64,000 bases of DNA, taken from NCBI RefSeq assembly GCF_000150275.1, contig NW_002060946.1:1879454-1943453 (forward strand), written 5' to 3'. The notes beneath the pieces were generated by a model. The model worked only from the letters and a program-made list of their open reading frames with translations. It was not told the DNA's origin and searched no databases. This document shows, piece after piece, positions 10,201 through 62,802 of this stretch; the stretch's first letter is position 1, and the number at the start of each line of letters is the position of its first letter. This DNA is from Trichoplax adhaerens. Lineage: Eukaryota; Animalia; Placozoa. The position numbers and the translations under genes are program-made.

Positions 10201-11581
10201 GTTTACACAGCATCGATTCGAAAATAAGCCAATAAACTATTGTATGATACAATACAGGGCCGCTTCCTGACACACTTCCGCAATACTCTATAGGGCCACA
10301 CTAGCGACTGTAAATAAATCTGCAATGGTCCATAATATATAATAGGTGGCCAAATCAATCTTTGCTCAAATTATTAGTTCTAAGTCTTTTTTGTATGCTA
10401 GTACTTCGCTATTGTTTCATGCATGTATTTACTAAATCTGCTTTTTTGAAATTTCGTTTCTATCTTTCGTGACAAGTAAAAGAGTCACAAAGTAACGGAG
10501 AAGAAATGTCAATCAATTGAAGAAATAGGGTGCAATCTTGTGTTAAAGTTGTATTTCACGATGAAAATGACAATCGTTATCAAAGGAAATAATCAGCCAC
10601 TACTATTAGACTTGTCACTATCTTGGAGATTCGTTAAAATGATCCAATTACAGTTTATAATCTACGATCTACTTAAGGTCCCCTTGCCTCGCGGGAAAAT
10701 GAATCGTGATCGTATCATAAAAGATGACTGCCGCAATCATATTATTGACTCTTTCAGTGCTAATTTTCTTGGTTACCCTGCCAACTGTCGTAGATTGATA
10801 GCCAATTATCATACAGTACTGAAATAAACATGTCAAGTAGATCTGTTAACACCCTACCCAATGTTTCTCGTCTTAATTAATTATTATTCAATAGAACGAA
10901 GGTCACTATTGATCACCAAGTTCAAATTTATTACTGTAAATTTAATTTTAATTATTTTTGTGTTTTTATTCTCTCCATCTGTTATCCTTCATCATTTTCT
11001 TTCATTGTTATACTTTAGCTACGGTAAAAGCAGAAAGATAATAATTGTTTATTATCTAGTGTCCTACCAGTCGTCATCGTCAAATGTTAGTCGATAGTAA
11101 TTCATCTATTGCAAAGGTAAATATCCGAAATATTGTCGTTAATGTAAGCAAATTACGAAGCCCTTGCAATGTTTTCCCATTTCGTAGATGTTGATATACT
11201 AATTCACTACTGTCATATGTATTAAAATACTTGTATCTGGTAAAATAACATCAAATATCAACATAATGCATCCTTCTGTATTCAATAGATAAGCCACCGT
11301 CCAAAGATAAATTCTCATATATACTTACAAGGTGCGGTTTATTGAGTCAAATTTATGCCCCCCAAAATACCTGTCATCCATTTTTATCGCCAGCTAGCAA
11401 CGCTAAATTCAATATCTTCGTCGATCTGCATCTTGCACCCATGTTGCTAGATGAAAAGCATCGAGGGTTAAATTAACACGGTATACGTTCATAGCTTGTA
11501 TCGTATACCGTTTCAAGCTTTACTGCGAAAGAGTAAGAAAGTTATCAACGTTCAATTCACAATATTAACAATACTTTGACT

Positions 11582-14790: not shown

Positions 14791-17700
14791 CGCAGTAGTA
14801 TGGTATATTTCACTTTACCGCAAACTAGTATTTCAAAATAAGTTAGGGATAAAAAAAGGTAAGATATAGAGGCTGACCATGCTTAGAGTTTAATTATTAC
14901 GTTAAGAATTTAATTTAAAGCTTCATTAACCATGACATTGAATACATAAGTAAGTAATGGAGTAAAAGCATAATATTCAGATTATATATCTTTATTATTA
15001 CGAATGTGAATTCATGTGATTAGTTAATAAGGTAGTATCAAATCCTAAATAATATAGACAATAAGTAGTTGATTAATCATAAGTCAATAAAGTAATTAGT
15101 AGAAATAATGATGTGATGTCAAAATTTTTTGATTATCAATCTGTCATAATATTAATCAGTAATGTTGAACAATTGCTAATAAAAAAACATCAAGAAATGA
15201 ACTGCTTAAAGATTTATCTTTCGGTAGAAGTCAATGTAACTCTTTAGATTGATAGCCTTTAACCTATTGGTATCAAATCTCGTTTAATTCAGTTCAATGT
15301 GTTAATATGTTGATTATACTTTAACCGTTGTAAAACTTATTATTAAATGGCCTCCCTTACTGGTGCGCAATATAGTGTTAAATCACGTTAAGCAGCAATT
15401 TCTCGAATTTTCATCACTCCTAAAAGGATGATGTCATTGTAAGCTATTAATTACTTGAACGCCGTGTTATACGAACGTATGTCTTTTCTCATACATTGTT
15501 AAATTGCTTACCTAAAAATAAGAGCAATGTAAAGAGTAAAATAACAACCGTGTAAAGCTTTGAAATTAACGCGCATTGAATATTAATAGGATAAATTCTG
15601 AAGCTCAAGTTGTGTACACTGTCGGAACCAGTACTCAATTTGACAACGGATGAAAGTATTCATTAATATCATTACCGCTTCAGCGATTACATTTTAAATC
15701 TTACAGGAAATTTTCAGGAAAAAAAATATTTCTATGCAGGTGTAAATAGTATTCCGCGAAAAATATGGGATTTGTATTAACGAGCCATGCGTACTTTATT
15801 AGGCGGCCGACAACATACGAGCAGATGCCATTAAAGCTTCTTTCATTATATAACATATTATAGCGTGCTTTCGTATATGAATCAGAAAAGCATGAGTCAT
15901 ACTGCGTATTTAGTAAGTGAACGTATTGGTTAATTTTTGTCGTCGGAGAACCCATATTGAATTCGGCGCCGTTTCTAGACAAACCGGGCTGTTGCATCTT
16001 TGTTCACGGTATAAGGAGTATCAATTTATAATGGCGTCGATGGGCAAGTTAGCATAATGTACAGCAGTAAGTTTACATAATAAGTATGTATATTTATGTA
16101 GAAGTCCTACGTAATATTCAATATCTAAGCTATTACGACTTTATCAGACTGGACGCCATTGTACGCAAACAATGTGACCTTTATAAAAAAGTCAATCTAG
16201 CAATTTATTGCCTGTATTATGACAAGATTGTTGATAAGTGAACTAGCTTGCGATCCATTAAGTTATCATTTTAATTCAACAGGACTTACTACTAAGTTAG
16301 TAGAATTTACTAGATTAGCCTACGCTTTAAACAAATAATGTACAGAATACTTGAGTGACTGTGAATCCAATGTAGTAGTAATATACTGTAATATGCATTA
16401 AAATTAATTATTATTATTTTTCCCTTCTAGTAAATATACGACGGAATCTATTTTTTCTGAATAAAATGTATATAAACAATCAAGGCAATAAACAAGAATA
16501 TTCAACATCAATTTCATTTTATTTGATGGGGAATCGTAAATGGGTGTTTATGTGCTGTTTATTGACATTCAAAATGGGCAAGATTATGCCGTAGAAATGT
16601 AACCTGTTAACATCAACACGCAGTACAATACAGCAGTATTAGTACAGTATATGTCCGAGCGATCAGTTCGTTTCAATGCCATTTGATAGAAAGGAACAAG
16701 TCAACAAACAACACACTGCAGTCGCCGCTTTACATGCAATTCTATTCTTCTGTAGTCATGGTAAATCCAATAAAAAATATGTTTCTTGCATCGGTGACTA
16801 CCATTGGATCCAGTTTCACAAGTGGAAATGCTCATTGCGTGTATGAGACAAAAGGCGGAAATTTTATTAGCGTCTAGTTGTTTCTTTTTTTCATGTCGTT
16901 GTTGATCTCTCTTTACTATTGCCCACTCACAGTAGAGTGGAGATTTTGTTGCATTCTACTGAGGGCTGTCCACTGTCCACACTTGACAGTGGTGTACTGT
17001 GGCGTTTTCAATTTTTATTTTATTTTACTTCATTTTATTGATTGATTTTGTTTTGAATTTATTTTGATTTTATTTCATTTCCCATCGGCCTCACGACTGC
17101 ACTCTGCTGCAGTCGTAATATTGACCGTACACCCGTACAGTACAGTACAGTGTACAGTGTACAGTGTACAGTGTGGCGGGGATTGATGTGTTTGTGATGG
17201 TGACTACACCTGACACCCGGTATACTGAATCCACGTTCCTTTGTAAAATGCGCGGGAAATGTAATGTCAACATTGCCTCTCACTTTTCATTCATCCTGGA
17301 ACCTTTACAATACATTGTACTGTAATTTACAGTACAATGTATTTTTGGATCACAATGATCACTTCTTCACCAGGTTAGAATGACAGGTGCAGTGGAAAAA
17401 CTTGAAAAGGCAAGCTTGGACACGTTTATCACTCACAGCTGAGCACTGTACTGCACATCATTAATATTGAGTTGATGAACAGGACTCTAGATATCGATAC
17501 AGTATTTACTGGATAATGACGCCATTTCAATCAGGCAAATCGATATTCAACACCGTATTATTGAATTGGGTTTGGGTAAGATGATTTCCCACCATCACCT
17601 GTTCAATGATGACCGATACAGTATTTGGTTATCACGCAAACTAAGTCACTAAAAGTACGATGTTGTAGATCCGCACTATTTCATAGATGCATGCGTACGG

Positions 17701-19873: not shown

Positions 19874-20140
19874 TGGTGCTGTAATGTGAAGTACCGTACT
19901 CAACCGTACCGAACCGTACCGTGCATGCTCGACAGTACGTTCTGCATCCTACAGTACTTTTTCAAAGTTTGGACTTGATGTACAAAAACAACTTCTTCAT
20001 CTTTTACTACTATAACGCCACCAGTCTTGCCCGAGCATACAGTCGATCTTTTCCTATCCGTCGCCTATGACAGTACTAGCTTACAGTACAAAGCACAGTT
20101 CGGTACTGTAAGGTCAGCAGACCCGTTAAAGTTCACCACA

Positions 20141-20148
20141 ATATAAAA
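20141..20148 (+). promoter_or_regulatory. Putative TATA box of gene B
   Basis: ATATAAAA in relatively GC-richer context ~320 bp upstream of the ATG, with Inr-like tcatagt/tcaattc ~25-30 bp downstream. Confidence 0.4.
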
Positions 20149-20466
20149 CCAAGCTTCGCTCACTTTCATAGTCAATTCTCAAAAATTTTTACTACCGTGT
20201 AGTGGAAGATTGCGTAACAACATTTTGCTAACGCTCTTGATTGCTTATATTTTTTTTTTTTCCTTTTGCCAACTTTTCCAGTCAACTACTTTCAACTTTA
20301 CTTTTCAAGACTTTAGAGTAGATAGTAACATCTTTTTAAGCCTGTTTTACTGTCATTTTATTCGTCCAAAATACCGTCGCCATTTCAGTGTAGTCATTTT
20401 CATTGAATCGAATTTTCACTGTCAAGTGTACACACACACAACGATACATTACAAACGCGCACAACG

Positions 20467-20682
20467 ATGGATCAAGATACAACCAACGAGATCGATGAAC
20501 AAGTTTGGCCTGATATAGGGGCTGATCTAAGGCTCCATGCAGACGAATTTGACAATCAATATCGCCGAAACTCCAATCTTGAAATGGTCATTGCCACATT
20601 TGATGGTATAGTTCAATCAGTGCTATTTCATCAAGTTCTCCGGATCGTACTTCACATCACCGGCAATTATCATCGCCTCTAG
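20467..20682 (+). CDS. Candidate BH3-only protein B (71 aa), PUMA/BIM-like
   Basis: EQVWPDIGADLRLHADEFDNQYRR resembles PUMA EEQWAREIGAQLRRMADDLNAQYERR. Amphipathic C-terminus LFHQVLRIVLHI. 12/23 identity with protein A across W..IG..L...AD.FD.Q.R.NS. TATAAAA at ~20142 and GTAAGT donor at 20712, 29 nt after the stop. Confidence 0.75.
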   Translation: MDQDTTNEIDEQVWPDIGADLRLHADEFDNQYRRNSNLEMVIATFDGIVQSVLFHQVLRIVLHITGNYHRL

Positions 20683-23600
20683 TCTTGTCGGATTCATCTC
20701 TGAAAATTGCGGTAAGTACACTAGTAATGCATACATCAATTGATTGCCTACCATCAACAAAATGAAGGCCAAACCTTTCATCAACTTTCTATTATACCAT
20801 GACTTGTTTTGCAGCATAAGTCCCCCGACAAATGGAGGCTTTTACACGTCCAATTTTCAATCAGTTTCTGACCCTTTCAACATTCCTTTATTTCATTTTA
20901 TTTCACTCTATCTTAATATCGACAATACGCGCGGTCAATCGACCACTTCCATACGCATTCTAAAAAATATCGTCACTGAAATACTTGAAATCAAGAACGC
21001 CGGCCGTATACGTTATAAGGTCTTTGATCTAGTACATTACTGTACGTGCATAGGGCTTACCCCACCAAATAGAGAAGTACTGTACAAGTATACGGTGTCT
21101 TATTGATTGGATGATACGCTTATATACAGTACTTGAATTAGTTGATCTGTTTTCATCGCAGTTGAACTTTGGAGTTACTATAAATTACCAACAAGTAACT
21201 GACTGACAATAATCATGCACCAGTATTGAAGCACCTTTGTTGTGTATTGGCATTTCCGACTGGGTTTTTAATATTTGTCCAATGGTGGGCTTATGACGGT
21301 AACGACAGAGCTAATTTACTTAACAATGTACAAGTGTATTAATTCCTTGTCATGAAACGATCAGTCATGCAATAGCTCTTGTCGACTACCGTCGGCTGCT
21401 AAAAGAAAATCTTTCTAGTATTTCATCATTCAGCCTGAATGATTTCGTAGCAGGCGAAGATAAATGTTGAAGCGCTGCACACATCAACTTCAATTAATAA
21501 TATTAAATAAACTTCATTAATTCAAAATCAATTGCATATAATAGTTCGTGTCGCATGCTTGATACCCCTAAATATACATTTAGTAGCTTAGCCAGAAATC
21601 TTGCTTCAAACCACACTTTAAAACAACATCATTTTGCTGAATTAATACTTACTAAAGAGAAATATCCAGAGTAGCAACTCCGAACTGTTCTTCAAAGTCG
21701 AAATACCTTTGCTGGAGTTGCCCTATGGAATAGTGACGGTCATTGCATAGGGCCCTGGAAGTAAATTTAGATAGTTTAAATACAGTGCATTCTGACAGTA
21801 TTGCACTCATAAGAGGAATATCATTGCCTAACTACATAGACCACCAATGACCAAGATTCATAATAGGATTGGACTGTATATATTATAGCTTGTAATTTAC
21901 CGAAATTATATTTTATTGTATTATTGTCGGAAAAATAAGACCTGTGCTTTCTTGATCACTATAGACAAGCCGGAAACCATCCTCAATACATGAGGAAAAT
22001 GATAATGGCCCAAAAGGATATCGGAGAACGGACTCGTAAATGCCAACAAGTATGCTTTTCAACTGCATTCTTTATCAATTGGTAACTATTGCTAAGATTG
22101 ACAGTGTGATGAAAGCAGAAACTAGGAGAAAATTGGTGGAGAAGTGAATTTCAAAGATCACTTGTTAACCGTGTTGCTTAAAAAGTTGCTAGTTACTTAC
22201 TAATTATTCCGTATTTAATCCACCCACACGTTTTGTTTTATTACGCGTGCAAAATGCGTTACAATGAGTTGTTCAGTTTCTTGGTGACTTGCTGATATTT
22301 CTATTTTGAAAACGATGCATTAGGAAAGCTCTGTTGGTTTAACTGCATTGATTTATTTCGAAGTTGACAAAGGTACTGAAACGTAAACGATCATTACCTG
22401 TTGAACTGATTAAACTGCAGTCTCAAATCGTTAAACCCAAACGACTGGAAATGGTTCAGTCGTTGTAAGGGCATATATACGAACTGTGGTGTTGTTGCTA
22501 GATGTGATTTTGAAACACAAGTAAATCCCAATAGCTAGTACACACTGTGCTATTTTGTCCTGTCTAGTCTAATGCGAAATTTTTATCGGAGGACAGTATG
22601 TGCATACATTATATGACATTATATACATATATATACATATATATATATACATACTGCATATAGGCATTGATTGCAAAATAAGCTACAAGGTGTTACTCGA
22701 TGAAGGTTTTGTGTGCTCACCATTCTGTAACAGCCAGGGTGTGATGGTTGATATTGAAGGATATTTTTATGTTTTTGTAATCTCTGTATATTTGCCATGT
22801 GCAATGTACAGTTACTTACAGTAGGCTGTCCTACAGCACTACGGCATATTGATTATTGTCAATGGTATTATTTTTTTATTTTAAATTCGAGACCCTACTG
22901 TGTACATCGTACTTTGTTAATTAAATTGTATTTAATTTTTTATCGTTTTATTAGTCATAAAGATTTTACAGGCGATATTTCGTATCACTAGATGTAAATC
23001 ACGATTGGATGGAACTCCAAATCATTTTTTTAAGTTACTGATTCTTGTTTTATTCATGTACGATTTGTATTTTATTTCTAGCTCAACATACAAATACCAT
23101 TACTGTAGTATTGCAGTATGGGTTTATCTAAATGTAACGTAAAGACTTTGGAAATATAAACAATGATTAATAAAATATGCTTATGATCATGTCTCTCTGA
23201 ATTTACTTCTTGTGGTTATTTGTAACCACCAACATGCAGTACGTGTATATCCCCTCCAAATAGACAAAAATGAGAAAATACTGTATCCTATTTACGGCTG
23301 TCACTTCCATAGGTATACTGTTCCACCTAGGTGATTAACAGACGATTCTCTTTTACTGAATATCATTACTATCAATAATAATGACTCGCCTTTGCCCCCA
23401 TAGCAGTGTAATCAAGAGATTTAATTTTGTAATAAAAACATTATAATTAGCAATTGTTTCCTTCCGCACGAAACGCATAGAGCGTATCGGTTAGTATACC
23501 TTGTAAATTATGAAATCAAGTGAATGTTTCAATTAATCTTATTATATGATCAATTAATAAATCATGACACCCAGGCGTCGATTGCTGCTGAAAAGCCACA

Positions 23601-32117: not shown

Positions 32118-34438
32118 TTAGAAGTATTCCATTTTTATCTTTATGATGTCAGTTTTGTAGCGCAACAGCGACTTCGGCAGATTTTCCTTTACGTAAGCGA
32201 CGTCTACGTTTTCTTTTCTAAATTATATAGGAATTATAGAAAGTATAAATACTTGCTAGCAGTTTTTACCTCATTAAGATCAACTAAAACATCGTTAGAG
32301 AAACGTACTACGTAATATCATGAAAGCCCAAAGTGTATTTCAGCTATTCATAAATTATTTAAATTAACATTTATTACCGTTTCTTCTCCTGCAGTCACAA
32401 TTTGTTTTTTCTTTTTCTTACAGGACAGAGGATTTGGTTCAGCTGGTCGTTTACGCTTTTTGCGCTTTATAAACTTTGTTTGTGATTCAGGAAGATAAGC
32501 CTTTTTCATTAGGTTTAAAACTTCTTTCTGGTACTGTGATGGCTGAAGTTTATCATGAGTAATCTAAACAAGTTTAGAATTTATTTTCAGTTATGACACC
32601 GCTAATACTTTGGAAGCAAATATATCTAAGGTTACATTCTTCGATGTTTTTAAGGCAGAAATTAGCTATTTGATTCAACGTACGTTCTCTGCAGTTGTTT
32701 TTGTCTTCATTGATGGCTTTTCAAGTATAATTGCATTATAATTGATATACAATATTGGTACACCTGCAAAATTTATTATTAATACGAGTAAATATTTTTG
32801 TTGAATCAGCGTCACAGCTATTGTAATCATTGATGACATATTATAAATTATCTTCAACTTACAACCAATTTTTCGCAACGCTGCCCGTAAATCTTTGTCT
32901 TGAGTTGCTACAAAGTAATGATTTTGATTCTTTTCTCCTAAAAAGGAAACGAATTAAAAATAAACAGTGTGTACTTATGAAGTTAATAAGGGTACAATTG
33001 TAATGTCACTGTGACAATAATTGTGCTAACAATTTCCACTAATTTACACACTATGATAAATCATGGAAGTTACATTTATTATGCAACAATTGATACATCA
33101 CATAGAGCAATAAAACTGTAGAATATTTATACTATGCAGAGAGGCTTCAAAACGTTGCAAATATGGCAGTAGTGTGATCTCTGTATTACTAATTGTCTAT
33201 CACAATGCAAATTACAATATTGAAATATCAATTTCAGGACATACTATAGCAACATTTCGGATTTGACAAATTTTCATTAGATCATGCAATACAATAAATA
33301 TTACATGAAAGGGATTTATACAAATAAAAATCTTTCTGTAGTAATGGAATAATAATCAATGTGTAAAATAGGTGAAAATTGTACCAATAAGATCCAAAAT
33401 GCATTCTGCAGCAGGCAAACTTGATTTATGGTGGCATTGCTTTTGGTAAAATCGCTTTGCAATTAAAACTGCTCCTAATAGTGATGGATAGTTGGTATCA
33501 ACAAGGTTTCTGCCTTCATGAACGACGCATTTAGTTGTACCTTCAATTTAAGGAATAACAGATATTTAGTAAATCGTTTATTTGTTAATAATAGGATCGT
33601 TCAGACAAGGTATCTATATTTAAATAATTGTCTGAATTTTTATTTAAAATAGCTTTCTTTCATTAAATACAAAGATTGATGAGATTCACCATCAAGGATG
33701 CCTAGCATAGTTTAGGGTATCTATTAAACAGTTTATGCATTACTATCCTATTTGCCGAGTTCACCTAGCAGTAGCAGCGTTTACTGTATAAGAATAAAGT
33801 TACCGTCTAGTCTAGTTTACTGCATTTATGAAGAGATGTGTATACATGTACAATTGCTTACAATAGCATTGAAAGTGGCGTCGACTACACGTATAGAGTA
33901 CTGCATGGAGGATATAGAAACATTGACAAATTCATACAAATAAGCGAGCTCGAGAATATTCTGTTCCACTTGATAATTTTATTTTATAATTGAGAATTAC
34001 GTACAAAGGTTGACCGATCCATCCAAGTATTTTGGTAGTTGCTCCTTGATATAAATTTTGTTGGACAAAGCAGCTTGGCAGAAAGTTCCATCCACTATTT
34101 ACGAGTGTGGGAGATTGTATCGCGCGCGTAGTACATTGATTTAGTTAGTATTTAGAGAGATCAGAAGAGAACAAGCATATATGATAGCAAAACAATTGCG
34201 ATCGTTTCATAGGAGAGTTGTTATATTAAGCATATATGTCTATCGCATCATTTCTACTATAGGAATATGAATTAATAAGTTCGTAATATGCTTTGATGTA
34301 TTCAGTGAGATTGATACGTTTACACGCATTTAGATAGGTCTATACTGTACCTAGTATTTGATAGGGTTCGTTTATACCCAAGGAATTATGATAAAATGAC
34401 AGAATTCGTCGAACATGTTTTAACCTAGTAATTTTCAT
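32118..34438 (-). CDS. UTP23: rRNA-processing protein UTP23 (PIN domain), multi-exon
   Basis: Exons 34438-34351, 34094-34005, 33540-33385, 32937-32863, 32763-32684, 32563-~32378, and a probable last exon ~32217-32118. Translation MKITRLKHVRRILSFYHNSLGINEPYQILVDGTFCQAAL...CTTKCV...HYFVATQD...VPILY...PNPLSCKKKKK matches the UTP23 family. The 3' end is uncertain. Confidence 0.93.
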
Positions 34439-37350: not shown

Positions 37351-37417
37351 AGTACTGTACTGTATCATACTACTGGCCAGCATTGCAATCTCATTCATCG
37401 TACAGTAGCGTGCAATC

Positions 37418-39740
37418 GGGCAGCAGTGTTGATATATAGCGCCGTGGGTTCCCTTCGGTGTTCATTTTGCTTGAAAGAACATCAGGACTCGACCAATTTT
37501 TCGTGTATCGGTCATCTCCAAATTATAACTTACAAGCTGCAAATCAATTTAAACCACCTTGGTTCGTATATTTTTGTTCCAATTAGAACTAAAAAAAATT
37601 GGGTTTTATCCTAAAGTGCAACATTCAATCGGTATCCGCATTACTGTAGTTGGTCTACTTCGTCGAAACGCCTTCAACCACCTGAGAGTCGCATTGAATG
37701 GATGATGCAGATAATATACGTGCTGAAGAAAGGAGGCTATGGCACATTGACGATTTTGCCGAGAACGCTGTACCAAGAGGAAGAAATTATGCTTGGTATG
37801 ATAATCTTCCTTTAATGCGGCGATATTTACGATATTTGCTGCAAGCTTGGCAACAACTACGCTATATTTTCTTCTAGTTGATGGAAACAATTCATTTCTA
37901 TTAAACGTTGAATTGCATAGAAAAAAGGAAAACTTTAATTTTTTTTTGTCTACGTATTTTCGTGCTGTACCATGTTCTACGTGAAGTACACCGATGATCG
38001 TAGCTGGTTTTAATCTGTATAAAACGATGCTGTCTATACTCTTTCTTTCCTTTTTTTCCATATTCTGCTTTGTGCTGGATACACTTAGCAAGATATGACT
38101 TTTTTGATCAATTTCGTATGAATTATCAGGTTATAAAGTTTCAATGCTCTGTAGTTAAATACTACTGTATGCGACAGTGTGATATCCAGTGGTCAATACA
38201 GTATTCAGATGGAATCGCCGTAGGCGGTAGTGCCGGTGAAAATTTGTTGTAGTCAACTTGGTAGTATGATGCTGTAGTATCGCTGATTTCAGCCATATCA
38301 AGTTATCTTGTAATTCTTTCCACTATTATCCATCACCTGTTTGTCATCAATCGCTTGGATCCGCTGTTAATTTCCGAAAAAGTAGCAGAGTACAGTACAA
38401 TATTATTATTATGAATGACCTCTGTAAACAGTGTGTGGACGGACGTACCATGTATTGCGCATGTTGGTCAGCTGCAAAGACTTTCACAGTATGCTGTCTT
38501 ACTCTGAAAAGCGTAAGCGGTACCGATTCCACCTGTAGAGGTAACAAACTGAATTAACCTCCTTGTTATCCTACAAACTAGAGTAAACTCTATACAGTAT
38601 TGTTATTCTTTTTTAGTTCGTTAGTCGGTTAGATAGTCAACTAGTTTTTCAATTGATATTTAATTGTAAAGACTATAATCTTGGGTGCCAAGATTCCTTC
38701 AGTAATAAATGATAGTAAATCTCTGACTATCTCGTCTACATCATCTGTGACGCTATAATTATACCATAGTATTCGGTTGTTGGAACTGAATTATTTGGTG
38801 ATATAGCTAATCTCGCCTCTTTAAGTTAGTAAGTGGCGTTCTACGCAAGGATTGGCGTGTGTAGACTACTTTGTTACTAGTGGTGTGTGACAAGTATCTA
38901 TATACAGATGTATACAGTACTGTACAGTACATATCGATAAACTACAAGCCGACGGACGCGTACGCAATCGAACATGAATTTCAATTGTAACCGCAATGTT
39001 AACTAGTTTTTAATTTTCTTCTTGTCATCGAGGTACAAATTTGTTACTCGATATGTTATGCTTGATTGATTATATATTGTTATTGTTGTACAGTATATAT
39101 AGTTAGTAATAGATTAAATACGATATCTTAACCATAAAGGCATAAATAAAGGAAACACTATACTGTATATGTACGTATACTGTACTGTATGATGATTGTA
39201 TGGTAGTACTTGTAATACAGTAGGTGATAACATTGTAAAAGGCGGACTGATAAGCTACTAATTGTAGTGCGAAGTATAAACTGTAATCGTATCGAGGTGT
39301 AACCTCGTGTAGCTGTAAATACCGATCAACTAATAATAAAATGCGGTTATCAATCTTACTCACGGAGTGAACTTATTATTGAAGAACATAACAGTTATTA
39401 CATGTAAAGTCAATGAACAGACTGTATTTGAAGATATTTTGCTTCATGAAAGGATAGACTAGAGAAATGGCGATGCAGTAATATTTGATATTTTGGTAAT
39501 GATGGAGTACAATCCGTATATTATGACGTCACAAAATGATGACCATTTTTCAATCAAGTATAGAATCCATGATCGCGCTAATTAACTTACTGTCATAGTT
39601 AATTTACTTTCATCGATCGACAAATTTTTCAAATCGTGTAAGACGTATTACTATTCATAAAATATATCTTGATAGCGTAATTTAAATTTAAATTTGTATT
39701 GATCAATTAACTCTATTAATAGCCCTACATAGGAACTTTT
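37418..39740 (+). repeat. Segmental duplication copy 1 (direct repeat of 43215-45170) carrying the BH3-dead paralog
   Basis: Long near-identical blocks with copy 2. Segments unique to copy 1 at ~38580-38897 and ~39085-39395. Confidence 0.95.
37698..37877 (+). CDS. Duplicate of protein C with mutated BH3 (59 aa); BH3-dead paralog or incipient pseudogene
   Basis: Manual translation: MDDADNIRAEERRLWHIDDFAENAVPRGRNYAWYDNLPLMRRYLRYLLQAWQQLRYIFF*. The ORF is intact, but AGRRLRRIGD has become EERRLWHIDD. Confidence 0.6.
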   Translation: MDDADNIRAEERRLWHIDDFAENAVPRGRNYAWYDNLPLMRRYLRYLLQAWQQLRYIFF

Positions 39741-39745
39741 AGGTT

Positions 39746-40978
39746 AACAATAGGTCTAAGGCGCATCTTGCGAAGATGCGCCTTAGACCTATTGTTCCCG
39801 TATGAAAACAATACAGCATGCATAGTAGGCGTGAACCTTCAGCAGCTAGTAGCAAAACGGCGTAGAATCTACTGCCTTTGCTATTAAACGAAAATGTTAC
39901 TGTACAGTACTGTATGCCATACAGTAGGATAAAGCTGGTGTCATGTCTAGTACTGTGGACGTTCGCCAGTTTTAATGAACGAACGTGCGAACGTCCAATT
40001 TGAACGTCGGACGTTCATTGAACGTACCAACGTACACAGTGTACAGTGTTAACACTACAGTATATAGTGTACACTGTACTGTACAGTAACCGTGCATTTG
40101 TACAGCATACAGTACAGTACATTACAGTACAGTACAGTACTGTACACAGTACACGATATAAAGTTACTGAACCTCTGACAGGTCTACACGGTACGGTATA
40201 AAGTTACTGAACCTCTGTTAAATGAGCACATTATCGTAAACCGTCAGTAAAGCGACGGGAGTTTGCACTACTGTACAGTAGTGACTCTGAAATACAAAGT
40301 GTTGTACTGTAAAAGACGTTTGTACTACTGTACTGTATGTACAGTACTGTACTGTACTGTATAGTATTGGGGTGGGATTATACAAACTGACTGTATACAC
40401 TGTACTGTACACTGTACACTGTACAGTACAGTTCGTCGACGTCCGATCTGACAACGAACGTACATACCGAACGTCCAAAATCGAACGTCCGTTGGACGTC
40501 CAATCGCTCGACGTCTACAGCACTAGTCATGTCTACTGTACTGTACTGTACTACTGGCCATTGCAATCTCCTTCATCGTACAGTAGCGTTCAATCGATCA
40601 AGCATTGAATTTTGTTAACCATTTTTTTTTTTGGGTTAACAAAGTTCAATGCTTGATCGATTGCACGCTACTGTACGATGTACGATGAAGGAGATTGCAA
40701 TGCTGGCCACTAGTATGATACAGTAGACATGGCACCAGCCTTAAATGCTCATTGTTAAACTGTACAGCGTGTATGGAAAGTCTCCAAAGACTTTCCAGTA
40801 TTTTTCCTAGAAATTTGAAACATAAATTCCTAACATTTTCGTTTAATTGCATAGGCAATAGCTTCTATGTCGTTTTGCTACTAGCTGCTGAAGGCCCACG
40901 CTTACTATGCATGCTGTATTATTTTCATACGGAACAATAGGTCTACGGCCGCATCTTCCTTTCCTTAGACCTATTGTT
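39746..40978. mobile_element. Two head-to-head copies of a ~340-bp hairpin-ended non-autonomous element (possibly Helentron/HINE-like)
   Basis: 39785-39899 is the reverse complement of 40831-40945, and 40558-40620 of 40635-40702. Terminal hairpin at 39746-39796. Further partial copies at 42984-43115 (+) and ~37355-37418 (-). Ends abut TTAA. The family assignment is inference. Confidence 0.6.
39948..40525. mobile_element. Non-autonomous hAT-type element (MITE), 578 bp
   Basis: TAG...CTA termini and 15-bp TIRs (tagtactgtggacgt / acgtctacagcacta, 2 mismatches). 8-bp TSD gtcatgtc at 39940-39947 and 40526-40533. The empty site is visible in the related copy at ~43075-43095. Subterminal AACGT/GACGT repeat arrays. 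Confidence 0.85.
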
Positions 40979-43214
40979 CCCGTATGAAAACAATACAGTT
41001 TAAACAATAAGCAGTACGTACAGTAAATACAGGCCAAAAATAGAAAAGTCTATTCAGCTCGATGGATGTTGCTTCTTAGTTAAATTGCCCTATTTTTATC
41101 GTTATACTGATCCAATCATTGATATATATTAACAATTATATGAATAGTGAACAATTTGCAATATGTTATGTATCTCTTTCTTGAAGATTAAGCTATAAAA
41201 GTTAAAAATGAAGTAAAAACGCTGCCCAAACCCGATCAAATTATTGATTTTCTAACCCGAAATGAGCACAATCGCTATACAAGCACTGCATTAGCACAGA
41301 ATTACTTGACTTTGAATCCCTCCCTGGAGTTGGGTTTGAGGTTGACTTTATTAAGGACACTAATGCTGGCTCTTCTCGGCCACCGTAGATAGCTGACTGA
41401 GAATGAAGGTTCCATTGATTAACGAGTCACCGTTTCTTTACAAATCTCATTTACTGTATATGACGTATGTACACACTATCCAGTATTATTTGCGAGTTAA
41501 GATAAAAAAGTTTATTCTCTTCCGGATGAATTGCTTATGTATTAGCAGCAGAGCTTATCTTCATATTTTGAATAGCTAGTCAATAACTCCTACCGTACTG
41601 TAAAAGTAAAGTAACCAATCTCAAGTACACGATCACTAAGTTAGTACACGTTGCAACGCGTTGTAGATCATCTTATATTCAATTAATTATTTGTCAGGGA
41701 CTACTGAAGGAAAGAGAAAGAGAGACAGAAAAGGATTTTTCATCGACAAAAATGTGAGAATCGATTTTTTTGCTGGTCATTTGGCTATACCTGAAGACTG
41801 AAAGCGTACAACGTCACCAATCACCTTGGAGGCACTTTTTTGCGAGCACACTTGTAAACAATGTACTGTACTGTACATTCAAGTGTACAAGTGTACTGTA
41901 CAGTACGATGTGTTCATTTCCTTTCAGACTGGGAAAAAGGGAAGAACAGTACCGAAATCAAGGTCAAATTACTATACTTTATACCATAATGGAGCTAGAG
42001 AGCTGAACTTTTTATACAAGTTGATAGAATTAAATGTCTATGCAAGAAGAGTCGAAGCAGATAGTAATCATTACTATGTACAATACTTTGCCATGCCAAA
42101 GTTGGAAACGAAAATAAACCCACGTTTACAGGCGGAGGGGGTTCCATTTTTATCGATGAAAAGTCGTCGTTTCCTGTCTCTTCCTTTTTCTTCCGTACAG
42201 TGTACAGTACAGTACACTACAGTACTGTATAAAATGTACTGTCAACATTGAACAATAAGTCAAGCAAGGTTCGACCTTGGGCCAATCAAACGATAATGAT
42301 TTAAATGCTGTACCGCGGTCTTTTCGTACAATACAGCACAGCACAGTACAGTACTGTCAACAACAAATCCAGCAAGACTCGACCTTGGGCCGGCAGATTA
42401 GCTAATCAAACGATGGTGGTTTAAATACTTTAAACAATAACAGTGATAATAGACAATATACTGTATATCACACTAGGCAATTGTCGATATTATGATAGCC
42501 CTTTAATAATCAATTAAAATGTTCCACTTAGCGCGCATTCAAATGTAAATGAAGCGTACAGTACATACTGTACGTACAGTACAATAGAGAGAGGAAAGAT
42601 AAAACCGCTATTGAATGGCATAGTACGTACAGTAGAAGTTGACCAACGGTATTACAGTACTGCAAGACTGCAAAGTACTGTACACTGTACAGTATGTTTA
42701 TGTGTACTGTACTGTACACACAAACTGTGCAGTATGAATAGAGTGTGTGGAAAGTCATTTGATATTTGTACAGTACAGCGTTTACGGGAAATTTTTGTAC
42801 TGTACAGTGTACAGTATACTGGTGTACTGTACAATGTACAGTACACGATAGTAGCGGATGTCGGAGACCTTTTACTATTTTGAACCCCCAAAAACACCAC
42901 GGGCGCTTTATTATTTTAATAAGAGTGTAGCAAAAATTCATGCTAACTACAGTCTTTCAAATAACTTGATTGATCATAATTCCTTAACAAAGTTCAATGC
43001 TTGATCGATTGCACACTACTGTACGTACGATGAAGGAGATTGCAATGCTGGCCAGTAGTATGTACTGTATGATACAGTAGACATGACACCAGCTTTATCC
43101 TATGGCATACTGTACAGTACTGTACTGTACAGTACAGTAGAACGATCGAACGAGGAGTCAGTCGATTGTACTCTACGGTACAATGTACTGTAGTGTTTCC
43201 CAAAAAAATTAGGG

Positions 43215-45170
43215 GGGCAGCAGTGTTGATATTTATAGTTAGCATTGTGATATATAGCACCGTGGGTTCCCTTCGGTGTTCATTTTGCTTGAAAAAACAT
43301 CACCACTCAACCTTTTTTTCCTGTCTCGGTCGTCTCCAAATTATAACTTACAAGCTGCAAATCAATTTAAACCACCTTGGTTCGTGTATTTTTGTTCCAA
43401 TTAGAGCTAAAAAAATTGGGTTTTATCCTAAAGTACAACATTCAATCGGTATCCGCATTACTGTAGTTGGTCTACTTCGTCGAAACGCCTTCAACCACCT
43501 GAGTGTCGCATTGAATGGACGATGCAGATAATATACGTGCTGCCGGAAGGAGGCTACGGCGCATTGGCGATTTTGCCGAGAATGAAGCACCAAGAGAAAG
43601 AAATTATGCTTGGTATGATAATCTTTTAATGCGGCGACATTTACGATATTTGCTGCAAGCTTGGCAACAACTACGCTATATTTTCTTCTAGTTGATGGAA
43701 ACAATTCATTTCTATTAAACGTTGAATTGCATAGAAAAAAAGGAAAACTCATGGATGACCGGTGACACTAGTTGGATAGTGTACGCACTTGGTATCTTGA
43801 GAAAAAAAAAATGAACTTCTTAATTAATTTAATATATCTTACACGTACATAGCTAAACGATTTACTGTGCTTCGTGAATTCTAATATATTATAGTAAGCT
43901 AAACATAGTCTAGCTTGCATCCAAGTGAAAGTGAATATTTTCTTAACTTCAACTTTTATTTTTTTTTGTCTACGTATTTTCGTGCTGTACCATGTTCTAC
44001 GTGAAGTACACCGATGATCGTAACTGGTTTTAATCTGTGTAAAACGATGCTGTCTATACTTTCTTCCCTTTTTTTTTTATATTCTGCTTTGTGCTGGATA
44101 CACTTAGCAAGATATGACTTTTTTGATCAATTTCGTATGAATTAACAGGTTATAAAGTTTCAATGCTCTATAGTTCAATACTACTGTATGCGACAGTGTG
44201 ATATCCAGTGGTCAATACAGTATTCAGATGGAATCGCCGTAGGCGGTAGTGCCGGTGAAAATTTGTTGTAGTCAACTTGGTAGTATGATGCTGTAGTATC
44301 GCTGATTTCAGCCATATCAAGTTATCTTGTAATTCTTTCCACTATTATCCATCACCTGTTTGTCATCAATCGCTTGGATCCGCTGTTAATTTCCGAAAAA
44401 GTAGCAGAGTACAGTACAATATTATTATTATGAATGACCTCTGTAAACAGTGTGTGGACGGACGTACCATGTATTGCGCATGTTGGTCAGCTGCAAAGAC
44501 TTTCACAGTATGCTGTCTTACTCTGAAAAGCGTAAGCGGTACCGATTCCACCTGTAGAGGTAACAAACTGAATTAACCTCCTTGTTGTCCTACAAACTAC
44601 AGTATATACAGATGTATACAGTACTGTACACTGTACAGTACATATCGATAAACTACAAGCCGACGGACGCGTACGCAATCGAACATGAATTTCAATTGTA
44701 ACCGCAATGTTAACTTGTTTTTAATTTTCTTCTTGTCATCGAGGTACAAATTTGTTACTCGATATGTTATGCTTGATTGATTATATTGTTATTACATGTA
44801 AAGTCAATGAATAGACTGTATTTGAAGATATTTTGCTTCATGAAATGATAGACTAGAGAAATGGCGATGCAATAATATTTGATATTTTGGTAATGATGGA
44901 GTACAGTCTGTATATTATGACGTCACAAAATGATCATTTTTCAATCAAGTATAGAATCCATGATCGCGCTAATTAACTTAATTAACTTACTGTCATAGTT
45001 AATTTACTTTCTTTGATCGACAAATTTTTCAAATCGATCGACTAATTTTCAAATCGTGTAAGACGTATTACTATTCATAAAATATATCTTGATAACGTAA
45101 TTTAAATTTAAATTTGTATTGATCAATTAACTCTATCAATAGCCCTACGGGACGTATCATAGGAACTTTT
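43215..45170 (+). repeat. Segmental duplication copy 2 carrying intact BH3 gene C
   Basis: Direct repeat of 37418-39740. Segment unique to copy 2 at ~43749-43955. Confidence 0.95.
43515..43691 (+). CDS. Candidate BH3-only protein C (58 aa), absent from the ORF track
   Basis: Manual translation: MDDADNIRAAGRRLRRIGDFAENEAPRERNYAWYDNLLMRRHLRYLLQAWQQLRYIFF*. The core LRRIGD is identical to BIM. The basic/hydrophobic C-terminus resembles the BIM tail (RLLRYIVRLVW). In-frame TGA immediately before the ATG; TATATAG at ~43251. Confidence 0.72.
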   Translation: MDDADNIRAAGRRLRRIGDFAENEAPRERNYAWYDNLLMRRHLRYLLQAWQQLRYIFF

Positions 45171-46708: not shown

Positions 46709-49700
46709 CTAGTCGCTGCATTCGGGTGAACTTGATCGTATATTGTATTCTTCTTCGGTCGTAGTACTTGCTGCCGGAGATGAAACTTTAGTTGGTGGTA
46801 ATGGCTTAAATGGATTTAAACTGCGTACAGATTTTCCACCGCGCGTGTTTACTTCTTGAGATTTCGTTAACAGTGGTGGCATAAATGAAGACTGTAAATT
46901 GTTATCATTAACGTCAGGTTGACTTGAAGTTATCACAGATTGTGATAAACTTCGAGTCGTTGATGGCGTTACTGAGCTCATTCGTGATAAACTTTCGCTT
47001 TCTTCCGTTGATGAATCTACGTTATTCCTATTATTACTTTGCCAAAAAGGACTACTCAAAAACTGATTTCTGCTTTTATTGGACTGAATTGAAGAGGGTG
47101 TAGGGATTTCGTCTCTGGAGGACATGATCGAGCTTGAAGCTGCCGATTCACTACGACTAGGAGTATCTTGGTAATCTTCATTAGTGCCAAATTTGGATAA
47201 TTCAGAATACTTACTATCCCAAGCAGGTTTAGTTCGGCGCGATAACGATGGCAGACTTGAAGCAGAGTTAGGGCGAAAAACTGTTTTATCAAATTTATCA
47301 TTGCGAGATTTTTCTTCGCTACTCATCCTCCTATCCGAAATACTTTCACTAATACTGTTTCTCGCTTGAGTTTGAAATTGAGTATCAGGTTGAATCGATC
47401 GAGTTCTTGTCATTTCTTCGGAGGACATTGGTCTGTTTCGATTTGATTTTCGTTGTGATCGAGCCGAGTGACTCCTGTCGGTAGCTCTATTAGATAGATT
47501 ATCTGAGACTATATCATTTTTTGTCGGAGTTAAGGTTCGAGAAGATAGTTCAGTATCATTGTAACTGGATGCAATGCTTGACCTTGCTTGAGTTACATCT
47601 TCAATAATTATTGAATCTTCTCGCTGTACCTCTCTATTGTTAATTTCATGATCACTTTGACTAGAGATAGCATCCTCTTCTTGAGATACTAAATGCGCGG
47701 GATTTGGACTATTAATGGCTAATCTATATTTTTCCATTAACTCCTCTAATCTTTCATCTGAAATTTCAGTTCTGTCGGATTCCAAATCAGTACCAGTTCG
47801 AGAAGTGATTGGAGTACTGATGGAGGATCTGCATTGTTCAAGTAACTCTTGCAATCTGCTCTCATCGACGCTTTGGGTATCATCCTATTTTCATCAAGGA
47901 TTGATGCCATTATTCAATAGTAATCATGATGTGGCTACATGAAGAATCTTAAAAATGTAAGTGAATGAGATATAATATTAATTTACCTCTTCATCATATT
48001 TCATTTTATGCAATTGTTGTTCAATGGTCTTAAGGCGATGATTTAAATCTCGTTGAAATTTCGTTTCAAATAAGCTATACTCTCCTAGACCTAGGTAGAT
48101 GACAAGTGAAATAGGTTCATACGAGTGTTTCCCTAAATATCTCAAAAACCTTTCAGTAGGCAGGATATATGTCTATGATCAGTACCATAGTTATCGATAT
48201 CGTTTTCATCAGCTTGCCATGCTATTATTTCATCTTTAACGAGACTCTATAGGATTAATTGTCAACATATTGGAAATACAAAATGTTAAAAGTTGCTATT
48301 GTACTGCAAAATTGCTCATCTAATCGCCAATAGTTGTAAAAATTTATTTCTTACATCGATTTTAGTTACACTAGTAATATTTTCAGTCATATCTTCATTT
48401 GGAACCATAGTTAAACTTTCGAATTTATCTGCCGGCATGATAGATTTCAATTTTCTAATTGTCATACAAGTAAGAATACAAACTTTACTGCAAGAAATAA
48501 ATAATCAGAAGCAAATCGTGACTACTAGAAAATTAAAATTTCTCAGTCGTACGTATCAATGCTATCTAAGATCTCTTTTTCTCGCTTTTCCGGAAGAAAT
48601 CCATTTGAAAGATTTTTAGAACTTGCAATATGGGTGTTTGTCTGGTTGATATGGATTTAGTATCCGCATTAATACCAATAAAGTCAAATAGGCATCGAAA
48701 CAAGACTGTGATTATTGAATATAATCTAGTACCGTCTCAGTTTCGTCTTGATTTTCATCCGCTTCAAGCAAGAGCTGCTCAATTCTCTTTTTTTCTTCAT
48801 CTGTCATCGTAACTATATTGGCCGCATCTGCTGCGAGCTATGTCAGCCAATAAAACTCTTGTGTTACTTATTACAATTACGTTAATAGCAGGGATCACTC
48901 AAGAAATTTTTTTCTCCCATTCCCATACACGGGAAGGAATTTCTTGAGTAGTCCCTATTAACAGATAGAGAATTATGTTATATCTCAATCTAATATGATT
49001 ATATTACAATACCTCGATATTTCTTCTAATATAGTTTTTATTTTTAGAGTCCGTTTTTTCACTTTTTTGGTTACTATGGTGCCTTTTATCGTTTTTTCCC
49101 TTTTGCTTTCTGCTTTGTTTAATCTTTCTATGTATTCGAGTCCTTGTCATTTCTGAATGATTTTCAGTTCGAACATTGGATTTTTTGCTACTCGATATCT
49201 CTGTAGCTGCCAATAAATGGTCTCAGATATATATTTGATTGATAAAACAACAAACAGAAACATCAATATAGAAATTTACCTTGTTCTTCATCTGATATAT
49301 CGGAAAGGTTGTAATTGACATCTAGATTACTTTCAATTAGTCCCGGCGGTTGAGTAGCAAAGAGAGGTGAAAATGTTCCAGAATAAGCTTCTATTTCCTC
49401 ATCGTCACTGAAAGCTATGCAAAAATCGAACATCACTACAAAGAAACATCTTCAATGCTTATAACTATAAATTAACCTCTTACAGTTACGAGTAAATACT
49501 TTATAGAATTATATCAGATTACTTGATAAATCGGGCGCAGGGCCAATAGCGTTAATGTGATTTTTAGATAGTAAAGCAATTTCTTTTCCTTCTCGTTCGA
49601 GTTGCCTTTGCTGCTCTATTAACTGTTGTGACCATTGAGATTCTAACACTAGCCGTTTCTTCTTGACTTCTTTTTCTTTCTATTTATTGATTCATCATCA

Positions 49701-50812
49701 GAAATATATATTATGAATATTTAGCAGCAATGGAAACTTAAGTGCAGATAATAGTTCAAACCTTGACTACATCAGTAAGAAGAGAATCTAATTTCTGAAT
49801 TCTTTTTAATCCCTTAGCAATTCTGGGATCCAGAACTTCTTCCGGCGTAGCTGCAACATCTTCTTTGGCTGCATTTACATTACTTGAATCTGCGGTGTCA
49901 TTTTGTGATTGCTTCTCATCTGTGACTTCCGTACACTCCTATTGTTTAAGGTTGAAGAGTATTAAACGAATGGTTGTAAGGCATAACTTAAATTTTTAAC
50001 ATTTTATTATCGATAAATTAGCAATATTCTACGATAAATTTTAAAGTTTATTTGGTACTATAATTCATGTACTTCTTTTGGTTTGTTTAATTCGATATCG
50101 TTATCACTTTCAGCTTCCTCAACAGGTTCCTTTTATGTAATATTTTGTTGGAATATAAGATAATAGTTATTTAAATTATATTTCCGTTTTATTAGAGAAT
50201 AGTTCATAGAAAATACGAAATTAATCAGTATGAATCTGTACAAGTAAGATGCTACTATACCTCAATGCTTGCTACTTCTATTTCCTCCACTGGTCGTGAA
50301 AAAGAAAGAGCATATTGACGTCGTAATACGATATGGCAAAAAGTTTATCAGGAATTTTACAGATTTTGTTAGCTTATTAAAATGATTATTGGTACCTTCT
50401 GGTGTTAATACTTCCAGAGATGATGAAGCAGGTCTATTAGAGCGCTACACGATTGATAATATATGTTATTTTTAAACTCAGCTATGACAGTTAGTGTAAA
50501 ATAACTCAATATGTGTGTAATAAAAATAATCGAGCTTAGAAAGTATAGTTTTACATATTACTTTCGTAATAAATTTAGCTATAAAATATTATAGGTTGAT
50601 GATAGATACGTTCGTTGTGCGTCGTAGTAAGATATATGCAAACGCAGTAGGCATAGCATGATGATTAAAACTTGATATTATTTTACTTCCTCTTTAGGTT
50701 TTAAAGTTTTAAATTAAAATAGTGAATAAACGAGTAACTTAAACGAGCAATTTTAGATACTAACCACAGATGAATGACCTGATATTGGTGGATATTGGTC
50801 GTCGTTATCATT
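46709..50812 (-). CDS. FSIP1: Fibrous sheath-interacting protein 1-like, multi-exon, with long Ser/Arg-rich C-terminal exon
   Basis: Exon translations SSSLEVLTPE, DPRIAKGIKRIQKLDSLL..KEKEVKK, FSPLFATQP, NYIRRNIELAADAANIVTMTDEEKKRIEQLL, QRDLNHRLKTIEQQLHKMK and RLQELLEQC follow FSIP1 motif order. Includes the 381-aa ORF 46709-47854. First exon and true 3' end are not resolved. Confidence 0.75.
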
Positions 50813-55893: not shown

Positions 55894-56773
55894 CTGTCAA
55901 AGAATCCACCTACAAACCACAAACTTCGTTGGCTACGGATTGCAATAACCGACGACCAATATTTTCTTAATTCATAGTGGTGGTATAGGCTTGAAAATCA
56001 GTCTTTTTTCTCACTGTCTGCTCCCTCTGGTTTTATCGATTACATCGATTGCCCATCTGCATTGGAATCAAGGTATCTACTCTTTTTATCCTGATACACT
56101 TAAGGTAAAAATGCCATTGTTTAGAAAAGGAGTGGATGAATTTACTAGGGCATCGATTTGTTAATATTGAATATCTTTAAAGAATTTTCCACGTACTAGA
56201 TGCATGACTAGTACTTTTGAATATGCTACTCTAATGTAATGATAGAGGTAGATAGAATGGTCGACATAGATCGGTAAAACGATGCTGCGGTATTAATGTC
56301 CAATTGTTTGATAAAGTTATTCTTCTTGGCAGTACGTATTCATAATTAATCTGTTACTGTTATTAATGTTATTAATTAAATAGGAATTGATATAAGCACG
56401 AAAATGCTTGTTGACACGATCCTCTACATCCTTGTAAATTCCGTATCAAACAACTCTAAAATAGTAATATTTATGTGGTACATACGATCATCTCTTTCCT
56501 CTCTCGATATCTTATTTGAATTGATGTTTCGACATCATCTAACTTCACACATAATTTAAGTACTGTAATCTTGATTGTACACCAAAGGCATAGTATGTTA
56601 TCTACGGCAATGGAAAGTATAATGAAAGTAAAAGGATGCGTTTATTAGATAGATGACAATTTGTAACAAAATTACGGAATGTTAATGCGATATTTTCACT
56701 CTCATGTAGCAACGCCGCCAAATTTGATTAGAATTATTACTCGCCCTTGCGTGAATTCATCATTGCTGCTGCA

Positions 56774-62700: not shown

Positions 62701-62802
62701 TTGATACCATGCTCATTCAACGCGGGCCATACAATTTCATCAATTAACATATATTATACGCTAGTAATAGCTACAATTGTATCTATTATCCATATGATAT
62801 AA
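56774..62802 (+). CDS. Voltage-gated Ca channel alpha2delta / CACHD1 family protein (signal peptide, VWA, two dCache domains, GPI-like tail), about 17 exons
   Basis: Signal peptide MNRQLKLVWILLWLIHIINC. Motifs YDPRLRPWYIAATSGPKDVVIVIDCGLSMQG, IMIVITDG, WTAPYLDASGLG, GVAGIDV, FRSYPG..YDPVKRPWY and QLPRTNLFLLVV. Ends CSFNAGHTISSINIYYTLVIATIVSIIHMI*. Confidence 0.9.

Follow-up and report, generated by a model that had tools for sequence, protein, structure and literature searches.

In a 64,000-nucleotide (nt) stretch of the Trichoplax adhaerens genome (contig NW_002060946.1 of assembly GCF_000150275.1; hereafter the window), we describe a small gene, candidate B, whose predicted product carries a PUMA-like Bcl-2 homology 3 (BH3) segment followed by an amphipathic helix. 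The locus is very probably a real protein-coding gene, and on balance we favour a putative role for its product as a pro-apoptotic BH3-only initiator. Candidate B has a likely paralog, candidate A, 9 kb upstream, and the two are concrete candidates, B a well-supported one, for a class of proteins reported missing from placozoans.

Expression and gene structure of candidate B

The window consists of AT-rich animal DNA with short introns. The B start codon is the first ATG from position 20100 onwards, and in-frame stop codons lie upstream of it. We mapped RNA and DNA runs to the locus, examining eight of the 23 listed. The expression expected by an earlier annotation of this stretch (the initial annotation) is borne out by spliced messenger RNA with an intact open reading frame (ORF) in five of the eight: the joint 20711/21965 occurs in X6, X8 and X17, which are RNA on record, and in X11 and X15, which are RNA by guess. 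Two single contigs (X17 record 10 and X15 record 9) span the complete ORF together with the joint, the latter at a depth of 150 versus 4–6 for the intron contigs. No joint falls within the B ORF in any of the eight runs. X1 and X4, unspliced across exon and intron, were classed as DNA-like and excluded as expression evidence, and run X18, which carries a third organism label, covers 272 nt of the B intron and nothing more. An intron close behind the stop codon usually escapes nonsense-mediated decay, and the 29 nt that separate the two in B fall inside that distance. Just 5′ of B, at 19947–20250, the runs differ at about 14 sites and by two small deletions; 20251–20711 contains one variable site.

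The only named relative of B is TrispH2_004896 from Trichoplax sp. H2, whose 80-residue NCBI model excises 20608–20682 as a 75-nt GT..AG intron and thereby acquires a different tail. This joint is found in none of the eight runs. Measured against shuffled sequences, the unspliced B residues 48–71 resemble the tail of the ortholog described below (z 17.7), whereas the NCBI-model tail does not (z −0.4). Splicing in the public NCBI model of the locus seems wrong, which may partly explain why the gene was overlooked; the exact 71-residue protein is absent among 15 billion sequences searched. The accessions of the two NCBI models, for A and B, are three apart, so additional isoform models may exist.

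Conservation and the BH3 segment

An ortholog, P0001, assembled from public runs, is 68% identical to B over its full length with a one-residue indel, and we infer that it comes from another placozoan. It retains W14, P15, I-G-A, L-R, His24 and D-E-F-D, carries the canonical G-D, and ends in HITGNYHRL as B does. Conservation of the motif in orthologs, on which the initial annotation had staked its proposal, therefore holds in this single ortholog, which keeps both the BH3 core and His24.

The sequence EQVWPDIGADLRLHADEFDNQYRR lies, as first annotated, inside the 71-residue B ORF at 20467–20682 on the forward strand. HMMER aligns B to PUMA BH3 peptides along IGA.LR..AD....QY.R, in agreement with the PUMA alignment originally proposed at IGA.LR..AD....QY. 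The upstream tryptophan said to recall PUMA is present, but its match needs a one-residue gap and Pro15 comes next. In this register I17 occupies the first hydrophobic position (h1), followed by G18, L21 (h2), H24 (h3, also 3d), A25, D26 and F28 (h4). The BH3-only core is thus found in B at I17, G18, L21, A25, D26 and F28, and in the ortholog with Gly in place of A25. Beyond the BH3 it contains no BH motif, and a Bcl-2 fold is absent as well: B is a 71-residue, single-exon protein with no PF00452 match and a two-helix model, and it lacks both the NWGR (BH1) motif and the length of a Bcl-2 fold.

The loose pattern L-x-x-x-small-D-x-hydrophobic occurs nine times in a six-frame scan of the window. 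A fuller BH3 pattern, defined after the A and B sequences had been seen, occurs in two ATG-initiated ORFs of at least 50 residues, namely A and B, against a mean of 0.02 matches in 150 simulated windows, three of which contained one match and none two.

Profile searches place B nearest to the BH3 peptides of PUMA and BIM. In the PDB, a profile of B and its ortholog has eight matches at E ≤ 10, with a best E of 0.022; seven are BH3 peptides of PUMA or BIM. When the profile is instead built on the 27-residue segments of A, B and the ortholog, 40 sequences match at a best E of 0.005: 36 are chains of the Bcl-2 family, BH3 peptides or mimics, many of them redundant and two classed by name, and the other four are unrelated. 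In Pfam, B matches PUMA (PF15826) at E 0.26, or 0.096 for residues 1–38 alone, the ortholog matches BIM-BH3 (PF08945) at E 0.099, and B is alone among 79 window ORFs in matching a BH3-only family. The profile comparison with BH3 families that the initial annotation had proposed thus returns PUMA and BIM as best matches, all of them below the family cut-offs. ESM Atlas places three unnamed clusters nearest to B and then PXT1, NOXA, BIM, BMF (three rows) and BIK, so that all seven named rows belong to this BH3 set; the neighbours of A form a similar set. The profile, Pfam and Atlas lines are mutually dependent, since the same 20 residues stand behind all of them. No Trichoplax-named Bcl-2 protein is among the 120 of 394 matches listed, and Rfam has no match across the window.

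We also considered a shortened multi-motif Bcl-2 protein, with a tail resembling helix 4 plus BH1. This reading is not supported: hhalign gives it a probability of 26%, 47 and 61 of 1000 shuffles score at least as high as the tail alone, and when the BH3 is kept fixed the numbers rise to 746 and 307 of 1000.

The C-terminal tail

The fold model, built from two sequences, places helices at residues 5–34 and 38–70 with modest confidence (predicted local distance difference test 68, predicted template modelling score 0.41). The tail has a hydrophobic moment of 0.69 in B and 0.82 in the ortholog, a best 19-residue hydropathy of 1.43 and 1.88, and a net charge of 0 and +2, respectively. Its likeness to the amphipathic C terminus of BIM, claimed from the outset, is a general one, the amphipathic character common to both. 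The sole Pfam match of the tail is FH2 (E 0.14), and the FH2 match of B (E 0.1) was discarded as a generic helix.

Candidate A, a tandem partner

Candidate A matches TrispH2_004895, the tag adjacent to that of B, and contains the motif W..IG..L...AD.FD.Q.R.NS and a transmembrane tail with a hydropathy of 2.7. Across the 27-residue BH3 segment, A, B and the ortholog share 11 invariant positions, with z 9–12 against shuffles and a score reached by none of 2000 shuffles; the alignment of A to the other two is limited to this segment, and the tails are unrelated. In both genes the coding sequence occupies one exon and an intron follows shortly after the stop codon in the 3′ untranslated region (UTR). 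This shared segment and layout point to an old duplication. The spliced leader of A contains four upstream ORFs; this is the leader without the upstream exon that the NCBI model adds through an intron from 11332, which the one covering contig lacks. A homolog search with A returns its own NCBI model only, and A alone has no BH3-family match in Pfam or the PDB. WD40 matches of A were rejected as sums of 5–6-bit repeats.

A possible p53 site

The consensus p53 half-site is RRRCWWGYYY. Between A and B, 17408–17427 is the only place in the 64 kb where two half-sites occur together with two mismatches or fewer, and a third half-site abuts it. Among 150 simulated windows, five contain such a pair with no more than one mismatch and none a triple, a criterion that was chosen after 17398–17427 had been seen. 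A second, weaker p53-like site, at 2085–2104 about 9 kb upstream of A, contains two CATG cores and departs from the consensus at three positions. Trichoplax p53 binds the consensus element and shows no transactivation in human cells (PMC5039725). We treat 17398–17427 as a lead.

Table 1 Coordinates of the features of candidates B and A in the window.
Feature	Position	Strand	Basis
Candidate B coding sequence, 71 residues, one exon	20467..20682	+	RNA contigs continuous across ORF; ortholog P0001
Extended BH3 segment of B, W14–S36; core I17 (20515), L21, H24 (20536–20538), A25, D26, F28 (20548–20550)	20506..20574	+	HMMER/profile alignments
Amphipathic, moderately hydrophobic helix of B, residues 38–71, likely membrane-binding	20578..20679	+	Model; residues 48–71 conserved in ortholog (z 17.7)
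B exon 1: 5′ UTR, complete coding sequence and 29 nt of 3′ UTR	20211..20711	+	Contigs; extent as far as contigs reach
B 3′ UTR intron, GT..AG, 1253 nt, begins 29 nt past stop codon	20712..21964	+	Joint in five of eight runs
B exon 2, purely 3′ UTR, AATAAA at 23169	21965..23174	+	Contigs reach 23167
TATA-like sequence, 325 nt 5′ of B ATG (lead only)	20142..20148	+	Sequence
Three abutting p53 half-site-like decamers between A and B, 3 kb 5′ of B (lead only)	17398..17427	.	Right-hand two match RRRCWWGYYY twice, one mismatch
Candidate A, 84 residues, likely paralog; extended BH3 with Leu at h3, strong C-terminal transmembrane segment	11582..11836	+	ORF wholly in spliced contig, one of four runs
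A 3′ UTR intron, GT..AG, starts 35 nt past stop codon	11872..12606	+	One contig of run X11
A 5′ leader intron, GT..AG	11117..11288	+	One contig of run X17

Proposed mechanism

Human PUMA BH3 is bound by trBcl-2L1 at 5 nM and by trBcl-2L2 at 81 nM (PMC7527217), so Trichoplax has grooves into which a PUMA-like helix fits, and we consider it likely that the B BH3 binds such a Bcl-2-family groove. From Bcl-2 family biology, the BH3 helix of B would occupy the groove of pro-survival Bcl-2 proteins, thereby freeing trBax to perforate mitochondria. The docking proposal is modelled on the trBcl-2L2:trBak structure (PMC7527217, which gives BCL-xL as the nearest structural relative of trBcl-2L2). Helix 15–34 would place I17, L21, H24 and F28 in the four pockets, as trBak does with I109, L113, L116 and Y120, and D26 would pair with trBcl-2L2 R97 as trBak D118 does. 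The tail would tether B to the membrane of an organelle, probably the mitochondrial outer membrane. If B is a BH3-only protein, His24 would, somewhat more probably than otherwise, lower direct trBax activation, leaving B mainly to neutralise trBcl-2L1 or trBcl-2L2. The weakest step, in which Trichoplax p53 would induce B or A through 17398–17427, is doubtful.

His24 is the most unusual feature of the helix, and its conservation in the ortholog suggests that it is probably under selection. The PUMA substitution M144I, Met to Ile at h3, increased BAK activation (bioRxiv 10.1101/2022.05.07.491048), so a polar h3 is expected to lower direct activation, and by this analogy a sensitiser role owing to His24 is plausible. 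The initial annotation had read the His as the mark of a selective sensitiser, which stays a hypothesis: PUMA M144I speaks for it, and the binding signals of three human H-A-D peptides in the same register speak against it. Those peptides gave array signals of 0.02–0.12, near background, in seven of seven rows, where positive controls reached 76–209% of Bim; they are confounded, one having Glu at h1 and two Ile at h2, so that the effect of His is not isolated (PMC4072508, supplement 9). His24 may therefore weaken binding overall rather than make it selective. A literature search gave nothing direct on a His substitution at h3.

Evidence against, and rival explanations

Besides the H-A-D signals, several observations weigh against a BH3-only role for B. 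With a rate of 0.02 per 64 kb, some 30 chance matches to the fuller pattern would be expected in a genome of ~100 Mb, so the motif alone is insufficient and expression, ortholog and paralog carry the case. Scores fall short of the curated Pfam cut-offs for both PF15826 and PF08945 (12–13.4 bits versus 26.4 for PUMA, 13 versus 25 for BIM), and 16 of the 79 window ORFs have some Pfam match at E ≤ 1. The ESM Atlas scores for B are all below 0.9, which is lead level, and the Atlas warns that the top family is common to just one of the ten best named rows. Just one ortholog was found: a profile search of 1.84 billion representatives returned P0001 and P0002 only, with no relatives beyond. E27K (G>A at 20545), which falls inside the BH3, is the sole coding difference among the seven runs covering the ORF, occurring in three runs of one study, and the counts of variable sites, one in the 216-nt coding sequence versus 13 in the 1253-nt intron, are too few to show constraint. 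The residue at h3, expected to be hydrophobic, is His in B and its ortholog; in A it is Leu. Across BH3 motifs this position varies more than the Leu and Asp do (PMC4072508), so that His24 lowers, and does not exclude, BH3-only membership. In Hydra, one of four putative BH3-only proteins is pro-apoptotic (PMC7489894). BH3-like peptides in many human proteins bind in vitro yet sit buried in a folded domain (PMC4072508); B appears too small for a globular domain that would bury its BH3, as far as a low-confidence model can indicate.

These points bear on three other explanations. B may be a true BH3 protein but a binder weakened by His24, tuning non-death roles of Bcl-2 proteins such as endoplasmic reticulum (ER) calcium flux, autophagy or mitophagy in the manner of atypical BH3 proteins and triggering no apoptosis. 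We regard this as unlikely. The polar h3 kept in the ortholog, the near-background H-A-D peptides (PMC4072508) and the inactivity of most putative Hydra BH3-only proteins (PMC7489894) favour it, and control of ER calcium by Bcl-2 proteins has been raised (bioRxiv 10.1101/816322); but the three remaining pocket residues of B are canonical, as are both small positions, its Asp and a Trp resembling h0, and its nearest matches, PUMA and BIM, are strong killers. Also unlikely is a reading of A and B as small membrane proteins with a tail anchor and some other role, perhaps shortened R-SNAREs of the synaptobrevin type, whose likeness to BH3 reflects a common helical pattern. A does match Synaptobrevin at E 0.00019 over residues 36–83 and VAMP2 in the PDB at E 0.16, and its want of a BH3-family match of its own agrees with a SNARE. 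That match, however, scores 21.6 bits against a cut-off of 26.4, covers profile positions 41–88 only, in the C-terminal half, and is lost when A is split at its membrane segment. Neither B nor the ortholog has a SNARE match in Pfam, B having none to Synaptobrevin/VAMP (PF00957); VAMP is absent from the 40 PDB matches of the shared BH3 segment; and the residues that define a BH3, I-G, L, D and F, are among those common to A, B and P0001.

It is highly improbable that the transcript is real while the ORF yields no functional product, or yields the 80-residue NCBI form without the hydrophobic tail. The treatment of 20608–20682 as an intron in TrispH2_004896, the absence of the 71-residue form from 15 billion sequences and the tendency of contigs to drop rare isoforms lean that way; against it stand the missing joint in all eight runs and the resemblance of the unspliced tail, not the NCBI tail, to the ortholog, and the BH3 is retained in both forms alike. 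We therefore retain the BH3-only initiator as the favoured reading of B. The original BH3-only proposal keeps the support of expression and of motif and His24 conservation; its sensitiser component is plausible and stays a hypothesis.

Other features of the window

A block of ~2–2.5 kb occurs twice within 37400–45150, 5.4–6.0 kb apart at 91–99% identity, with inverted repeats, including a 52-nt inverted pair at 40569–40685, and many TGTACAGTAC-type runs; it is likely a repeat or transposon family. On the reverse strand, 32300–33550 holds exons of a UTP23/Fcf1-family ribosomal RNA processing gene and 46709–50450 a gene of several exons that matches nothing in Pfam and includes a Ser/Arg-rich exon of 391 codons. 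On the forward strand, 56730–62800 is a multi-exon gene with a VWA domain (Pfam) and a signal peptide, which we take to be alpha2delta/CACHD1-like. A metagenome scan for relatives of B confirmed none of 440 pattern matches. Separately, metagenome locus L003:133–1203 (+) holds a Bcl-2-like exon with a long N-terminal extension that resembles a CARD domain and, after it, a coiled coil.

Significance and comparison with known systems

Searches of the Trichoplax genome are reported to have found no BH3-only gene (PMC7527217, PMC8998228), the former paper allowing that sequence searching might overlook a gene that has diverged, and bioRxiv 10.1101/2021.12.21.473695 left BH3-only proteins out. In a largely open literature, represented mostly by titles and abstracts and with placozoan single-cell gene tables outside its scope, we found no report of a placozoan BH3-only gene. 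This reported absence underlies the proposals that mitochondrial apoptosis in early animals ran on multi-motif proteins alone, that trBak fills in as a sensitiser and that the origin of BH3-only proteins lies with cnidarians. Both trBcl-2L1 and trBcl-2L2 as recombinant proteins, a crystal form and an assay in cells are available already. If B and A are what they seem, they would give Trichoplax p53 (PMC5039725) a candidate death target in a species used in work on radiation resistance (PMC8635375). A broader scenario, which we think improbable, would have placozoans hold a tandem BH3-only pair under a p53 site, the p53, BH3-only, Bcl-2 and Bax death switch known from worms and mammals having been built in the common ancestor of placozoans, cnidarians and bilaterians; the conserved h3 His would then confer selectivity or pH sensitivity and divide the labour between B and A, which has Leu there and a membrane anchor.

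Within Trichoplax, trBak (trBcl-2L4) has been proposed as a BH3 sensitiser and shares with B the register and an acidic residue before h1 (E108; D16 in B), but it is a multi-motif Bcl-2-fold protein, whereas B is a 71-residue protein without BH1 or BH2 (PMC7527217). Hydra HyBH3-only-2, the earliest-branching BH3-only protein with binding data (dissociation constant 149 nM to HyBcl-2-4), begins its motif with IGA.LR as B does; it differs in having Ile at h3, is cnidarian and did not turn up in homolog searches with B (PMC7489894). BIM (BCL2L11, PF08945) resembles B through the ortholog match to its BH3 (E 0.099) and an amphipathic C-terminal helix (PMC6980855), but has a long disordered N terminus and a tail with two key arginines, against a net charge of 0 in the B tail. 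PUMA (BBC3, PF15826) shares IGA.LR..AD....QY.R, an upstream Trp, the lack of a Bcl-2 fold and, possibly, a nearby p53 site; unlike B it has ~190 residues and Met at h3, the similarity is confined to the BH3, and B lies below the family cut-off. NOXA (PMAIP1), whose Atlas cluster has a cosine of 0.80 to B, EGL-1 and HRK are very short BH3-only proteins, like B small, with a BH3 near the N terminus and a single C-terminal helix; B has no Pfam match to their families.
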